From NCBI GenBank assembly GCA_905178155.1, contig CAJINV010000111.1, forward strand, positions 1 to 6,400: a stretch of DNA of 6,400 nucleotides. Direction: 5' to 3'. Positions 1 to 6,400 of the stretch are shown here, piece after piece; position 1 is the first letter of the stretch, and every line of letters begins with the position of its first letter. Made by a program: the position numbers and the translations under genes. The notes under the pieces are model-generated. The model saw only the letters and a program-made list of their open reading frames with translations, did not search any database and was not told the origin of the DNA. The DNA comes from Amoebophrya sp. A120. Lineage: Eukaryota; Protista; Dinoflagellata.

Positions 1-143
1 TGCTGGGAGCGTCAGTGCTGCTGGGAGCGTCAGTGCTGCTGGGAGCGTCAGTGGTGCTGGGAGCGTCAGTGCTGCTGGGAGCGTCAGTGCTGCTAGGAGC
101 GTCAGTGCTGCTGGGAGCGTCAGTGCTGGGAGCGTCAGTGCTG
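1..143. repeat. 18-bp coding tandem repeat GTGCTGCTGGGAGCGTCA, about 8 copies, the last shortened to 15 bp; encodes STDAPS on the minus strand
   Basis: Directly visible; truncated by the window edge. Confidence 0.95.
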
Positions 144-710
144 GAGGTGTCTGGAGCCTCAGTTGCAGGCTCATCAGGATCATGGTCAGGGTCGTTCTCC
201 GCGTTCACGATGTCGTCGTAGTGATCGTCGTTTCGGTCCATCCCGTTCTCACCAAAGTAATGCTTGTACTCTGCCTCCGACACCTCTCCGTCGTCATTCC
301 TGTCAACGAGATCGAAGCGCTCGTCTCCCGCCTCTCCGGGGCCGTCTCCGCTGTGTCCAAAAATCCCACTCTCAATATGCTCCCCCCAACTAAAACTGTT
401 CGGAGTAAAAACCTCGTCGGGTTGGAGTTTTCCGTCGTGGTTGTCGTCCAACTTGTCGAAGGGTACTGACCCCACCCCCTGTGGGTCTTTGCCGAGAGCA
501 AAGACACCCTGGCCGGCGGCGATTCCGGGCGCATTTTCCGGCAAAACGTTTTCATCCACATCTCCGCCGGTTTCCTGCTCGTACCCGCTGCGCACCGTGT
601 CCTGCCAGAAGTCAAAACCCTTGTCCGGCGGCGGGTCCGCGAACGCCGGAAACATGTCGTCCTTCTTGTCGATCCCGTCCGGTCCGAAAACTTCGTTTAG
701 TTCTTGCTTG
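1..710 (-). CDS. Last visible exon: KQELNEVFGPDG...FDKLDDNHDGKLQPDEV...FDLVDRNDDGEVSEAEY...(STDAPS)n, running off the window
   Basis: Open frame read by hand. It is absent from the ORF track, probably because it has no stop in the window. Contains two canonical EF-hand loops. Confidence 0.9.
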
Positions 711-3700
711 GTAACTATCACGGGCAAATGTGTCTGGGTCTGGAAAAATAAATGCAAGATCTGCGATGCATCTTGCGGACGACATGCATGGTCTGAAATG
801 CACACAGAAGCATCACAGATTTTGCGACACCTTCCTCATGCCTATGCCACATGACAAATGCGCCTTTCGCCAACTAAAAAGTTGGTAGCTTTAGGCGATC
901 ACGCAATACAGATTTTCTTGCGATCGAGATTTGTTCGCATGACAAGCTGCCACCTTCCAGACCCAGGCATATTTGCAATGCATAGTAACGAGCCCGTCGT
1001 GGTTTTCATCCACTAGGTTGAACCGCTTCTGGATCACTTCTGGATCCGTTTGGGCGTTTCCGAAAATCGTCGGCGGCGGGCCACCGGCGGGCGCGGACCG
1101 GGTCGCCTCCTCGATGGAGATGGCAGGCACGGCTTCCTTGCCATCTCCCGCGATGTCATTCTTGTCTATGGCGTGCATCTCGTCAAACGTGACATGGCCG
1201 TCCGAGACCTTGTGATCGTGTCCTTGCACAACGAGACCCCATGTAGCCTTCTGATGCTCTGTCAGATCCGGAGGCGTATGCACTGCAAAAGTGTCTGGGT
1301 CTGGAAGTTTGGAACTTGTGATGCTACCCTTGGACTCTGCATAAAATCTGTATAGCATGAACAGCAAAGGAGGCGCGATCTGTGCCACACGGAGAGGGCA
1401 TTTCTCATGCGTCATGAGCATCAGAAAGCCCTCGCAGAATTTCTGATGCTAGGGCACGCATCACAGACCTCATGGGTCATGCAAAATCTGCATGACAAAC
1501 TCTTGCATTCTTCCAGACCCAGACATTTCTACATTTGATAAGGCGACATCTCGCCGTCGTCTTGATTAGACGGAAGCGGCATCCTATGCAAGAAAAAAAG
1601 GAGCGCCAGTACACTCATACATTTTTATGACATTTCGGCAAGAACTTCTCAAACTTGCTCTGCATGAGCATGATCTGCAACGCAGGGACGATATGAATAT
1701 GGCAAGAAAACGTCGTCGCACATCGGGAAACATGGGGGGGGGAGCAGGCTCCGCCCAAGCATTTCCGGCATGAGATAGAGTTTGTCCTCTGTCCTGCTTG
1801 TGCTTGCCTTGTAGCGCAACATCACAATGTGTACCTGCAACACGACTTTTTTCTTTGCATACATGTCCCCCGGGTTGTCGTTGTCCCCGCCTGACCCAAA
1901 CGGGTATGGAACTGTCAGGATTGAAATTAACAGAGTTGAAATAGTTTGTGATGCATAAAATCTATACCAGTTGGGCCCACAGTTTCCAATCGACGCACGA
2001 CAAATTTTCCTGGTCTCTGAAGCAAGTCTGTCATGCTGTTGAGGGCAAGATGGCTGCTCCCTGTCATGCTAGTCAGCCGCCCAATTCTTGACCCTTACCA
2101 GCACTAGAATCTGCCTCCCGCCTTGCGCCTTCTGCAATAGAGTCACGTCAGTCTTTGTGTCGCAGTTTATGCATGACAAATCATTTCAAATTTGTCGATT
2201 TCGAACCTGACACATCCATAACGGGGGGTCGAGTTTTATGACAACATCGCCGCGCCGGTTCACATCATAGTTCTCGTTATCGACCTGCACCTGGCCTGAT
2301 GGGTTGTCATTCGGTTCAGCGAGGTCGCCGGTCCGGTCCTCCAGAGTATCCAGGTGAATTTCCCCCGGTTTGTGATCCGACCCCTCCAGCTTGACGAGCT
2401 TGTCCCAGAGGGCGGGACTCCCCTTGAACTCGTCCTTTTGTAACACGCCGTCGGCTATCAAATGCAAATATGGGGTCTGGGTCTGGAAGAATGCATTTTT
2501 TTGTCATGCAACTTTTCGAAGACACAAGAAATAATGGTCTCTGATGCACGTAAAGCATTACAGGTTTTGCGCTGGCCTCTTGATGCCTATTCCGCATGAG
2601 TAATTTCCTATTTGCGTAGCAACAAGCGGACAGCTTTTCCTTTTGGTGCTCATGCAATACAAATTTTTGCCTATTCATATTCTATAATCCGTAGGACAAG
2701 TTCGAATTCTGCCAGAACCTTCAGACATTTTTGCAATGCATATCGCCGTAGTAGGGTCCGTTTGCGTAGTAGGATCCCTTAGCCTTTCCTTCCATGACCG
2801 CTTCAGCCTGGTCCACGCGATTCAGATCATCCGGAATGTTATACATATGCAAAATCAATCGTTCGCTAGTACTAGTGATTACATCTGCATCACAAATATT
2901 CTCACAAATAAGGTAATGCTGTTCAACAACTGTTTGACTTTGTCTTTGATGCAATATTGGAATTTGTACGACGAGTTCGATAGTTTTACAATGGATAAGT
3001 ACATGTCGACTTCATTGTCATCCCCAGCAATTTCGTCGTTCATGTGCATCTCCAGTTTCGCCTGCAGATCTTCTGCGGGGTTCTCGCCTCCGCGCAATCC
3101 CCCCTGTTGCGTACTCGTCTCGGTTCCGCTTTCGAAGTCGTCGGGATACTGAATGGAGTCCAGCTCGGCTTTGGTAATGATAGGGTGTTTATCAACTGTA
3201 AAAGTGTCTGGGTTTGGAAGATTGCCGGCTTTGTCATGCACATTTTGCATGACTCCTCAAGTCTGTGACGCATGCCCTAGCATCACATATTTTTAGAGGG
3301 CTTCCTGATGCCTATTCCGCATGACAAATGCTCTCTCCGTACTGAAAAATTTGGACTCTCTTTGCTGCTCATGCAATACAGATTTTTTTGGAATCCAAAT
3401 TCAGCATCACAAGTTGCATTCTTCCAGACCCAGACATTTTTACATTTGATAGTGTTCCTTCGTGTGATAGTCCGCGTTGTACTTTTCCGCCGGGTATGGA
3501 AGTGTCAGGATCGAAATCAACAAAATCGAAATAATTTGCGATGCGTAAAATGTAGGGCACTGAAGGCCTGTGTTGGGGAGTAGGCAAATGAGACCGATTG
3601 TGAGCCTGTTTAGGGGTATAAAATGTGCTGCCAGAGTAGCATGACAGGAGGAGTCTTCTTTGCCCAAACTGCATGACAGACTGGATTTGGGTGCGCCCGA

Positions 3701-6205
3701 AATTTGTCATGCGCCACTGGGAAACTGAGGCTCCAACAGACATCGATTTTGTGCATCGCAAATTTTTCGATTTTGTCAATTTCGATTCTGACACTTCCAT
3801 ACCGGGTGTATCCTGTGTAAAAACTTCTACGGGGCCTACGCCCTCGAACCAAGATTGGAATTACTGAACAACCCACGTAAATCCAGAAGCTTTGGAAGGT
3901 GAGTCACGCATGACAGCACGAAATTTATTCGCAGTGTTCTCGCTGCAGTGTAGTGTACTTACTAGAGTAGCTGCGAGTACATCATCTTCCGCATTGCAGA
4001 GCCATCTTCTAATCCTGGTGTTTACGGTATCTTCACAAATCCCGAAACACAACGGGTGGAATTATGGCATTTCATCATCAGATGCGCTGCATGTCAACAA
4101 ACCTTTATTCTGTAGAAGTAGGGGCAAATAACGCAAATCTCCACTATACAATTGATTCTGGGCCGCGGCGGGTGTAGCCGTTTTCTACACAGGATAGGGT
4201 TCCAGGTTTCATCATGCCAGGGTACGTCGCCATGCGCTGCGTATGAGAGTGCAAAAACTCGTCTCTGTCCACTTCCTTTCTTGTCATGCAAAACGCCAAA
4301 TCCACACCCAACCGGGCCTTTTGACCACGTGCGCATGACAAGATTCCGACGTGGCCAAAAGCGCCCTTCCGTCTGGACCACGTCGATTTGTGTTCATGCA
4401 AAAGCTCCATCCTTCAACGAGCTGCTCTCGTTGGTAGAAATGGCCTTCAAACCAGGAGCAGAGCGAGGAGTAGTTGTCCGCTATCATACTGCTGTGTTTG
4501 GATCCAAATCTTGTCCGTGGATCTCCTGTATCAACTGCAAATAACTCGTCTGGGTGTGGAACTTATTGTGCCGCTTGTCGAGCCCTTGTTGCATTCCTGT
4601 AAATTACTCTGTACTGCATGTTGACTGAACAACAAGACCGCAGCCACTTTAGCTTCACCTGTCTTGTTTCATCAGAAAGAAAAACGCATAAAAAGCGCTA
4701 GCGCTACTGACGGCGCGACGAGAGCCTTCTAAAACTTCATCTCACGCTTGGCTGCGCTGTCTTCAACTCCTGCTGAAACTGTTTACTGATCCACAATGCT
4801 GCAGCACAACAAGTTTCCAGACCTCCCAGACGTAGCTGCAATGGATATCCTGGTCTATTTTCAAATCGTCATTGATCATGTTTTATCGAGTGCACAAGTA
4901 TTGTACTAGTCGTCCCACTTACTGTCTTCACGCATGACAGATCCCCCTTCTACAAAGCAAAGCCATCAAGTTAAAAATGCAGATTTCATTTTGCAACCCT
5001 GAGAGAAAATTTCCAATTGCAATTCCGACTTCTACTTCATATACGATAGCGATACTTTTGCAATGCATATGTCCTGCAAGGCAGCCTGCTGCAGCGGATT
5101 CATTTTCGCTGGGTCGATCGGCGGATCGTGGTCCGGGTCGAAGGCACCGGGAGGAAATTGCTCCGCCACCTTGTCTATAAACTGCAAATATGACTGGGTC
5201 TGGAACCTTGTGAGGACGCTGGGCTGCGTATTATGAGGGGGGCAAATCAAGTGCTGCCTCAGCGCGACAAGTTTCTGAGCTTCTGGGTGTTCTTGCCTGT
5301 TCTGCATGACAAACTGCGTTTCTGCATGACAGAAAAATGGGCTGGGGCTCTTGGGTAATGTGCATGACAGATTTAAGAATCACACCAGACAAGCATGACG
5401 AACATGCATTCTTCCAGACCCAGACATATTTGCAATGGATATTGTCCATATACTGGTCTTTCTGCATCTCATGAATCGCCTCTTTCGTGATGCCATGTGG
5501 AAACTTCTCTTCAAATTCTTGTTGAGTGACCTGCCACTTGCTGTCGTTTGCATTTTCACCGTTGTCTCCATCGTCGAACCACGCCACAAGATCCTCGTGC
5601 GCACCATCTTCATCACCCGTGAGGCGGAGCGCAAGCTCGGATGGCTCAGTCGTGTCACTGAAGCCCCCTGCTGTGAGCTCGTCAAAGTCTATTCTGCCAT
5701 CAGAAGCCTCGATTTGTTGCATTATGTGATTCATTACGTCCGGATTGTCAAAAGGAAAATCGCCATCGTCTTTCTGTTTCATTTCTTGGCTGACTTTTTT
5801 GGTTTTCCGCGTGCTCAGACGACGGTTTTGCTTTCTTGCTGTGCTGCGTGCTGTAGCCATTTTCCGCCGCCCCTGTTTGTAGTTCTTCTGGCTTTCTCCA
5901 TTTTCGAGCGCGCTACTCGGACCAGAATTTGCAGCTGGACGAAGATATACTTTATCATCATCCACACGACCACCCGAAGTAGAAGAGGAGGTGTCTACTT
6001 TACGGAACTCGTCACTTGCTGCAGCTGATGAACTACTACTTCCGGCACCAGCAGCAGAAGGAGCGCTCTTACTGCTCGACCCAAGAAACAGAAAGCGTTG
6101 GAAGAAATCTCCCAGCCGATCTTTCCAGGATGAGGAAGAAGCAGCTCCTTTTGTTGTTTCATCTCGATCTCGACGACGCTTCTTGTTTTTCCGCTTCCAC
6201 CGACG
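1..6205 (-). CDS. Multi-exon gene, partial at the 3' end: acidic EF-hand calcium-binding-like protein with a C-terminal (STDAPS)n repeat. Inferred exons: 5442-6205, 5070-5170, 4848-4878, 4489-4523, 4197-4236, 3802-3803, 3452-3489, 2998-3184, 2743-2839, 2221-2450, 1862-1899, 1541-1579, 985-1271, 1-710 (boundaries can slide within the 5-bp DRs)
   Basis: Manual removal of the 13 TAT..ATA elements (plus one DR copy for 12 of them) gives 2599 nt (866 codons + 1 nt) with no stop. EF-hand loops: DENHDGLVTKQE (across a junction), DDNHDGKLQPDE, DRNDDGEVSEAE. The start is uncertain because of the TAG at 6206-6208. Confidence 0.85.
716..984. mobile_element. Element 1: introner/MITE-like intron, TIR family A, 269 bp
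   Basis: Ends TATCACGGGCAAATGTGTCTGGGTCTGGAA and TTCCAGACCCAGGCATATTTGCAATGCATA. Perfect DR GTAAC at 711-715 and 985-989. Splits an EF-hand loop. Confidence 0.92.
985..1271 (-). CDS. Exon: PDLTEHQK...RFNLVDENHDGLVT
   Basis: Core of ORF 891..1421, bounded by elements 1 and 2. Joins in frame on both sides. Confidence 0.88.
1277..1540. mobile_element. Element 2: family A, 264 bp, interior inverted relative to elements 1, 5 and 7
   Basis: TIRs with the GTCTGGGTCTGGAA core. Perfect DR AGGCG at 1272-1276 and 1541-1545. Confidence 0.92.
1541..1579 (-). CDS. Short exon: PLPSNQDDGEMSP
   Basis: Lies between elements 2 and 3; in frame with both neighbours. Confidence 0.75.
1585..1861. mobile_element. 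Element 3: family C (TATGCAAGAAAAAA...GTACAC TIR), 277 bp
   Basis: Imperfect TIR of about 30 bp. DR CATCC (1580-1584) / CATGT (1862-1866). Also readable as an in-frame GT-AG intron at 1584-1862. Confidence 0.8.
1862..1899 (-). CDS. Short exon: FGSGGDNDNPGDM
   Basis: Lies between elements 3 and 4; in frame. Confidence 0.75.
1905..2220. mobile_element. Element 4: family B (TATGGAA.TGTCAGGAT.GAAAT TIR), 316 bp
   Basis: Imperfect TIR of about 40 bp. Perfect DR ACGGG at 1900-1904 and 2221-2225. Confidence 0.92.
2221..2450 (-). CDS. Exon: DGVLQKDEF...VIKLDPP
   Basis: Core of ORF 2186..2467, between elements 4 and 5. Confidence 0.85.
2456..2742. mobile_element. Element 5: family A, 287 bp
   Basis: Left TIR intact, right TIR decayed. 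DR TCGGC (2451-2455) / TCGCC (2743-2747). Confidence 0.88.
2743..2839 (-). CDS. Exon: IPDDLNRVDQAE...GPYYG
   Basis: Part of ORF 2721..2954. The upstream boundary is uncertain (2839-2865). Confidence 0.75.
2840..2997. mobile_element. Element 6: short, degenerate, family-A-like, 158 bp
   Basis: TATACATATGCAAAATCAATCG pairs with the reverse complement of the right end, TATCCATTGTAAAACTATCG. No standard flanking DR. The frame requires removal of a length equal to 2 mod 3. Confidence 0.65.
2998..3184 (-). CDS. Exon: PIITKAELDSI...DDNEVDMY
   Basis: Core of ORF 2879..3250, between elements 6 and 7. Confidence 0.82.
3190..3451. mobile_element. Element 7: family A, 262 bp
   Basis: Family A TIRs. 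Perfect DR GTGTT at 3185-3189 and 3452-3456. Confidence 0.92.
3452..3489 (-). CDS. Short exon: AEKYNADYHTKEH
   Basis: Lies between elements 7 and 8; in frame. Confidence 0.75.
3495..3801. mobile_element. Element 8: family B, 307 bp, interior inverted relative to element 4
   Basis: Near-perfect TIR of about 55 bp. Perfect DR CCGGG at 3490-3494 and 3802-3806. Confidence 0.93.
3809..4196. mobile_element. Element 9: family D (TATCCTGTGTA TIR), 388 bp
   Basis: TATCCTGTGTAAAAAC pairs with GTTTTCTACACAGGATA. DR GGGTG (3804-3808) / GGGTT (4197-4201). Confidence 0.87.
4197..4236 (-). CDS. Short exon: AHGDVPWHDETWNP
   Basis: Lies between elements 9 and 10; in frame. Confidence 0.75.
4242..4488. mobile_element. 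Element 10: diverged TIR (TATGA.AG...CTC..CTCTG), 247 bp
   Basis: Imperfect TIR. DR CTGCG (4237-4241) / CTGCT (4489-4493). Removal restores the frame. Confidence 0.82.
4489..4523 (-). CDS. Short exon: EIHGQDLDPNTA
   Basis: Lies between elements 10 and 11; in frame. Confidence 0.75.
4529..4847. mobile_element. Element 11: diverged family A, 319 bp
   Basis: TATCAACTGCA...GTCTGGGTGTGGAA and TTCCAGACCTCCCAGAC...TGCAATGGATA. Perfect DR TCCTG at 4524-4528 and 4848-4852. Confidence 0.9.
4848..4878 (-). CDS. Short exon: MINDDLKIDQ
   Basis: Lies between elements 11 and 12; in frame. Confidence 0.75.
4884..5069. mobile_element. Element 12: short, family-A-like ends, 186 bp
   Basis: TATCGAGTGCACAAGTAT pairs with ATACTTTTGCAATGCATA. 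DR TGTTT (4879-4883) / TGTCC (5070-5074). Confidence 0.8.
5070..5170 (-). CDS. Exon: KVAEQFPPGAFDPDH...QQAALQD
   Basis: Part of ORF 5032..5307, between elements 12 and 13. Confidence 0.82.
5176..5441. mobile_element. Element 13: family A, 266 bp
   Basis: Family A TIRs. Perfect DR TTGTC at 5171-5175 and 5442-5446. Confidence 0.92.
5442..6205 (-). CDS. Large exon: RRWKRKNKK...DGRIDFDEL...QKDQYMD
   Basis: ORF 5231..5965 (GTG start in the track) stays open upstream to the TAG at 6206-6208. The true start is unknown. Confidence 0.75.
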
Positions 6206-6400
6206 CTAAAAATACCCGGACTTGCTGAGCTTCTCATTCAGTATCTGCAGCTGTTTTTCCGCTTCTTTTTCCTGCTTGTTCCCCAGTTCCAAGACCGCGG
6301 AGCCACCTTCGGTGGAGAGATCTTCCGTAGTTGCCGTCGGGGTCGTTGCCGTCGGGGTCGTTGCCGTCGGGGTCGTTGCCGTCGGGGTCGTTGCCGTCGG
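6206..6400 (-). CDS. Coding-like segment (PTATT)n-EDLSTEGG...LSKSGYF*, in the same frame as the downstream exon
   Basis: Open frame from the window edge to TAG 6208-6206. It is either the 3' end of an upstream gene or part of the same gene. Confidence 0.6.
   Translation of the reverse strand, partial: PTATTPTATTPTATTPTATTPTATTEDLSTEGGSAVLELGNKQEKEAEKQLQILNEKLSKSGYF
6330..6400. repeat. 15-bp tandem repeat GTTGCCGTCGGGGTC, about 4.7 copies; encodes PTATT on the minus strand
   Basis: Directly visible; truncated by the window edge. Confidence 0.95.

Follow-up and report, generated by a model that had tools for sequence, protein, structure and literature searches.

More than 60% of the introns of Amoebophrya A25 and A120 are without GT-AG ends, and a U1 is not detectable (PMC7789003, in its accessible part). 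The introner elements described there by Farhat et al. (2021, PMC7789003), as far as the accessible text goes, have an inverted repeat of 8-20 nt that joins the intron ends and a direct repeat of 3-5 nt, and the A120 inverted repeat reads TAT, seven variable nt and then at least three A. In Polarella glacialis and Aureococcus anophagefferens too, TIR/TSD elements make introns on either strand, with GT, GC or GA plus AG sites being supplied by the element or the TSD (10.1101/2020.10.14.339549, accessible part). The nonconventional introns of Euglena (Nomura et al. 2025, PMC12501133) lack GT-AG and have paired termini, and a MITE origin is proposed for them in what is accessible of that paper; their cuts are set by fixed, asymmetric spacers from the paired terminal motifs. 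As to how such elements are searched for, and in the accessible parts of the two papers, one pipeline allowed opposite-orientation matches (PMC9860276) and another required the same orientation (PMC12130899); the second paper (Gozashti 2025) also gives an A120 TIR family with integrase-related ORFs, which is a lead only.

The window analysed here is a 6,400-nt stretch of an Amoebophrya sp. A120 contig, and the elements in it are the introner elements published for A120 (Farhat et al. 2021, PMC7789003). The likeness to that description, in its accessible part, extends to TAT-start TIRs, the A-run, a short direct repeat (DR), lengths of about 240-270 nt, non-GT-AG ends and repeated families, and a protein identical to that of the window's host gene (P0002) is labelled Amoebophrya sp. 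A120, as in Farhat 2021. All 13 elements sit within one minus-strand coding region, as set out below, where X3 stands for contigs of a probable RNA run (its RNA nature being a guess), P0001 for an A120 paralog and P0002 for an A120 protein and its gene model.

1-5860, minus strand: host coding region, ATG at 5860, leaving the window at its left end, with the 13 elements inside.
716-984, minus strand: E1, family A, oriented like E7; DR exact (711-715 / 985-989).
1277-1540, minus strand: E2, family A, opposite to E1, E5, E7 and E13; DR exact; junction spanned by P0001.
1585-1861, minus strand: E3, with its own TIR; DR 3/5; removal by arithmetic; X3 depth zero over 1592-1797.
1905-2220, minus strand: E4, family B, opposite to E8; DR exact; an X3 piece starts at 2220.
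2456-2742, minus strand: E5, family A, oriented like E7; DR 4/5; transcript-upstream DR copy kept.
2840-2997, minus strand: E6, short and degenerate; DR 2/5; 163-nt removal at the TIR register, giving a frameshift.
3190-3451, minus strand: E7, the family A reference; DR exact; high-copy; joined out in P0002 (gene model).
3495-3801, minus strand: E8, family B, opposite to E4; DR exact, the outer copy overlapping the E9 DR; joined out in P0002.
3802-3803, minus strand: 2-nt micro-exon between E8 and E9, if these are removed separately.
3809-4196, minus strand: E9; DR 4/5; the gene model retains the upstream DR copy.
4242-4488, minus strand: E10; DR 4/5; joined out in P0002.
4529-4847, minus strand: E11; DR exact; joined out in P0002.
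4884-5069, minus strand: E12; DR 3/5; weakest predicted end pairing; retained in one X3 contig.
5176-5441, minus strand: E13, family A-related, oriented like E7; DR exact; an X3 piece stops at 5170, before the DR.

The elements run from 158 to 388 nt, start with TAT, end with ATA and possess matched arms (TIRs; 10-15 of the first 16 nt match in 13/13) and flanking 5-nt DRs, these being exact in 7/13 and matching at three or more of the five positions in 12/13. Family A arms show TAT, seven variable nt and an A-run, and family B (E4, E8) has the TAT start and is without the A-run, unlike the A120 motif in the accessible part of Farhat 2021. A spliceosomal-type register is offered by 2/13 only, E5 (GC..AG, unused) and E11 (GA..AG), and none of E1, E2, E4, E7 and E8 offers a GT, GC or GA 5' site with an AG 3' site, in which the window elements differ from the Polarella and Aureococcus introners. 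The Euglena signature N3CDG...CH'GN5-6|R is also absent, CDG being found at positions 4-6 in 0/13 window elements, and the purine preference seen in Euglena, which is an unrelated lineage, does not occur after the DR in 235 elements of the wider set described below. No part of the window matched an Rfam covariance model (group I/II and other RNAs) at gathering score. With MITEs and non-autonomous TIR DNA transposons the elements share TIRs, a fixed 5-nt TSD, a length too short to code and random orientation, and unlike MITEs they are removed from transcripts. Summed contig depth is very high over E2, E7, E8 and E13, a sign of repetition across the genome. Within family A interiors (e.g. 3190-3451) GCAT[G/C]AC recurs on both strands with means of 1.6 and 2.0 per element, a recurrence resembling subterminal transposase-binding repeats.

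The original prediction held that homologous elements lie in both orientations within this one gene, and the alignments bear this out. After removal of the outermost 40 nt on either side, which kept the TIRs from driving a match, and with local scores set against 200 dinucleotide shuffles, the interiors of E2 and E7 score 27 on the same strand and 151 on the opposite one, and those of E4 and E8 score 25 and 74; E1-E7 (79/18, same/opposite) and E5-E7 (59/20) are direct matches, as had been claimed for the sharing of the E7 interior, and E1-E2 (20/41) and E2-E5 (18/41) are inverted ones. Shuffle maxima for these six pairs were 25-31, and so the two inverted alignments at issue (151 and 74) stand well clear of them. 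At the level of bases the reverse complement of 1343-1433 is identical to 3296-3388 in 69/93 columns, and 1950-2071 to the reverse complement of 3637-3760 in 88/125. The peptide echoes (HDKCSLR/HEKCPLR) taken from the ORF track as a further sign are mere translations of a non-coding repeat. A flipping of the interior between fixed ends was considered as the cause of the inversion and set aside, because arm positions 4-5 track the interior and inversion of the whole element is then the simpler account.

A pattern made from family A ends gave at least 166 loci, merged to 456 kb and all from one assembly, with the best full-length match to E7 among the related loci listed being 89%. Detection by the ends only, with matched arms required and the DR unused, yielded at least 306 elements; in the related loci listed the 5-nt DR is exact in 233/306 and matches at 4/5 in 45/306, and DR length peaks sharply at 5 nt. 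Host strand was called by a Markov coding model, for which 30 long ORFs served as the training set; the model was correct at 12/13 window junctions. Its junction and locus calls agreed in 134/139 cases. Of 727 ORF segments listed, 147 were scanned with Pfam and 11 gave anchors; these bore out the locus call at 8/9 loci, one being tied, and three of the Pfam-positive ORFs were also in the training set. Strand could be assigned to 235/306 elements and 71 were dropped.

Counted relative to host genes across these 456 kb of related loci, orientation shows no bias. Family A in the loci listed is 49 same and 36 opposite (p=0.19), 21:19 where the two strand calls agree and 5:4 in Pfam-anchored loci, and the families, window elements included, split 77:63, 24:24, 6:10 and 9:5 (related loci listed). 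The first of these is the largest family, of 140 members among the loci listed and including E1, E2, E5, E7 and E13, and since 0/3137 of its pairwise edges are inconsistent orientation is well defined in it. Homologous pairs fall 1863 vs 1805 by orientation (related loci listed), both orientations are present in 8/11 loci with at least two family A copies, and family B is 3:3 of 9, with 3 uncalled. The Polarella and Aureococcus introners, in contrast, are biased to one orientation (10.1101/2020.10.14.339549, accessible part). TIR base composition is equal at 5' and 3' ends of the 235 strand-called elements, and their lengths have no 3n bias (79/74/82). An apparent CAG excess in the 3' arm of the 13 window elements was entertained as a transcript-strand signal and given up, the asymmetry following the element in the 235. 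The products of related loci L021:2-1090 (plus strand), L013 and L020 are a C5 DNA methylase, a DNA ligase + metallo-beta-lactamase-type repair fusion and an SNF2 helicase, and TAT...ATA-type elements occur in the ligase and helicase loci also.

The element class is already published, and the two-way creation of introns is known elsewhere, with spliceosomal ends. The accessible text and supplement text of Farhat 2021 (PMC7789003) do not address the orientation of elements to the host gene, 'orientation' being used there for genes only, and a literature search whose coverage ended at subscription papers found no statement on A120 element orientation; the orientation-blind, TIR-anchored rule was not found reported for A120 in the sources as accessible.

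Both orientations had also been said to restore the frame, and for the six elements so named (E1, E2, E4, E5, E7, E8) this holds: 12/13 window junctions are open after removal of the element + 5 nt, and E6 is the sole junction (1/13) where removal of the element and one 5-nt DR closes the minus-strand frame. Across the related loci, with the frame called on each flank independently, 41 of 44 filter-passing elements (of 235) have a phase consistent with loss of element + 5 nt, and about equally so by orientation (9/10 and 8/9), this being frame evidence and not RNA.

Evidence closer to the transcript comes from one X3 contig of 1446 nt, which aligns without mismatches as pieces 150-710, 985-1271, 2220-2450, 2743-2834 and 2998-3161. 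It skips E1, E5 and E6, each with 5 nt, and the 76 unlisted letters between its 1271 and 2220 pieces equal, by arithmetic, small exons of 39+37 nt after E2-E4 removal. This single contig thus covers elements of both orientations, E2 being inverted relative to E1 and E5. P0002, a 113-aa A120 protein, is identical to the spliced translation across E11, E10, E9, E8, E7 and E6, its gene model joining out E6-E11; A120 gene models were built on transcript alignments (PMC7789003, accessible part), and P0002 may share RNA data with X3 and so is not fully independent of it. Removal of E7 and E8 rests on P0002, no X3 contig having been seen across either. Elements of both orientations are in this way joined out in an X3 contig (probable RNA) and in P0002, contigs being silent as to efficiency. 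The alignment of the paralog P0001 (45% over 316 query aa) crosses the E1 and E2 junctions. Joints were absent from the 6 reads of raw RNA run X11 and the 3 of X12. One X3 contig retains E12 (depth 3.5) and another begins at the E12 end (depth 3.4), which suggests that E12, the element with the weakest predicted stem, is partially retained. E8 and E9 (3490-4196) are 7 nt apart with DRs that overlap by 3 nt, and their separate removal would yield an mRNA no different from that left by a single composite intron of 705 nt, P0002 being in frame through the site.

Given that both orientations are joined out and that orientation is unbiased, signals in the asymmetric element interior cannot be required for removal. 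Random orientation rules out the interior for recognition, which leaves some 40 symmetric terminal bases and a 5-nt ruler. To this extent the original view, that removal is independent of strand-specific internal signals, stands; its extension to branch points and pyrimidine tracts does not, because the TIR 3' arm supplies a U-tract and a branch-like motif in either orientation. What marks these introns out to the cell is likely to be the mirror-image ends and not any interior signal.

The reading favoured here, with moderate confidence, is that the A120 introner elements are MITE-like, lie in either orientation and are cut by a machinery anchored on the paired TAT...ATA ends and on a fixed distance from them. 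Insertion would be by a cut-and-paste transposase or an integrase-like enzyme making 5-bp target duplications. Duplications of 5 bp are associated with integrase-like enzymes. In the pre-mRNA the two arms would form a stem, and this stem together with the invariant UAU/AUA ends would be recognised by machinery that counts a fixed distance from the paired ends and removes the element plus exactly 5 nt. The DR would be a footprint of which the length matters and not the sequence, and in either orientation of the element the ruler would restore the exon as it was before insertion. Candidate catalysts, both fitting, would be a U1-less spliceosome with a stem-binding adaptor or a separate nuclease-ligase route. 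Unrelated TIRs (families A and B, E3, E9) have only TAT[C/G] and matched arms in common, with equal removal length, and GT/GC..AG in any of six registers is found in 17/235 elements sense and 10/235 antisense. For annotation the rule is to remove TAT...ATA and the downstream 5 nt, which reproduced the A120 model here; the accessible part of Farhat 2021 has variable splice positions as against this fixed rule (PMC7789003).

Possible, if on the unlikely side, is that a modified U1-less spliceosome works from linear signals of the TIR (a U-run, a branch-like UUGAU and the terminal UAU/AUA), with pairing being incidental and orientation-blindness arising only from TIR symmetry. The TIR 3' arm does carry a U-run and a YTRAY-like pentamer either way (112/235 sense, 111/235 antisense), YTRAY being found in the last 40 nt of 112/235 elements vs the preceding 40 nt of 25/235, and A120, without U1, retains U2, U4, U5, U6 and most spliceosomal proteins (PMC7789003, accessible part). 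However about half of the elements have no YTRAY within the last 40 nt, the A-run/U-run is missing from family B arms although their removal length is the same, and no conserved terminal dinucleotide exists at any of six registers. Also in favour of linear signals, wobble bias is absent: on the transcribed strand G-U does not outnumber A-C in the arms (117 vs 126; 117 vs 118), and RNA-level selection on arm pairing is not visible. Median predicted end pairing is 0.78 sense vs 0.79 antisense (n=230), partly by construction as matched arms were required; such symmetry of the arms speaks of tolerance and not of an absence of pairing, because inherited arm differences and random orientation give it anyway. 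Arm mismatches are common at positions 4, 5 and 7, and arm matching within an element exceeded that of permuted arms in one orientation class (0/1000) but not in the other (151/1000). Two elements with poor predicted end pairing, E6 (0.31) and E12 (0.0), nonetheless appear to be removed. In favour of structure, the element seen retained, in one case, is E12, with the lowest value of all. Pairing of the arms is plausible, though the G-U excess that would mark it is missing. Orientation independence by itself does not separate the TIR hairpin, as first proposed, from linear motifs in the TIR, and the original step to hairpin dependence went too far.

More tentatively, and unlikely as things stand, a non-spliceosomal and orientation-blind excision-ligation may bind the TIR stem, measure 0 and 5 nt from its base and repair the transposon footprint in RNA. 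Were this true any TAT...ATA element with a 5-bp duplication would be a harmless intron once inserted, and the invasion by tens of thousands of copies would be explained.

Where exactly the cut falls bears upon a further part of the original prediction, that removal depends on the hairpin and the DR; in its strict form hairpin and matching DRs would both be required, the two DR copies being aligned to fix the junction. At mismatched DRs the transcript-upstream copy is kept, at E5 and E6 in the X3 contig and at E9 and E6 in P0002. The E5 pieces 2220-2450 | 2743-2834 have no other letters between them, and the GC..AG register, which keeps the other DR copy, is unused. E6 is cut within 1 nt of the TIR on the 5' side and 4-5 nt beyond the TIR on the 3' side, and there the TIR register with 2/5 DR matches is used and a nearby exact 5-nt pair (in-frame, 158 nt) is not; the out-of-frame 163-nt join is seen in both the contig and the gene model. 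DR mismatches by position are even (14, 8, 9, 12 and 12 in 223 elements, related loci listed). A constraint on DR positions 3-5, suspected from the clustering of window mismatches at positions 1-2, was dropped on the uniformity in these 223. From the E6 register and the even mismatches, it looks as though the junction is set by distance from the TIR and DR identity is dispensable; the register itself rests on three junctions (E5, E6, E9), none in an element of known opposite orientation. A need for matching DRs, which the frequency of exact and 4/5 DRs under DR-blind detection (233/306 and 45, loci listed) and the retention of E12 (DR 3/5) would favour, is improbable on this showing, since E6 is removed at DR 2/5 with the exact in-frame pair ignored, mismatches are uniform over the DR positions, and recent insertion alone would already give exact DRs. 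The DR as a matching sequence is then unsupported as a requirement, and a fixed distance from paired ends is the reading kept here.

It is highly improbable that the form without elements arose in DNA, through precise excision, an empty allele or a retrocopy, and not through RNA splicing. In favour of such an origin are the guess on which the RNA nature of X3 rests, the two accessions of P0002, on two contigs, and 261 joints beyond those listed; but X1 contigs run continuously through the element junctions without mismatches, six elements are absent at once from the X3 contig with X3 depth absent in the E3 and E9-E10 bins, and the element class was defined from RNA-seq junctions (PMC7789003, accessible part).

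The host product is one or more acidic EF-hand proteins, Pfam EF-hand_5 matching the last exon at E=1.6e-7, and P0002, with its two accessions on two contigs, and the paralog P0001 (about 45-51% identity) place the host gene in a small A120 family. In-silico splicing of the host breaks the frame at the E6 join with a stop at 2829-2827, and P0002 ends at the stop which the E6 join creates, as in the predicted splice. The E6 join is out-of-frame in the X3 contig and in the A120 model alike, and the downstream EF-hand exons fall in a different frame. A homolog search with exon 2221-2455 gave no matches and no relative across the E6 join was found. The host gene may be broken, split, or rescued via a minor in-frame isoform.

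Both edges of the window (1-146 and 6327-6400) hold tandem repeats, of 18 nt and 15 nt, that are coding and on the minus strand give Thr/Ser/Pro/Ala-rich, mucin-like tracts. An upstream minus-strand ORF at 6206-6400, with its stop near 6206-6208, may be the end of a co-oriented neighbour gene.
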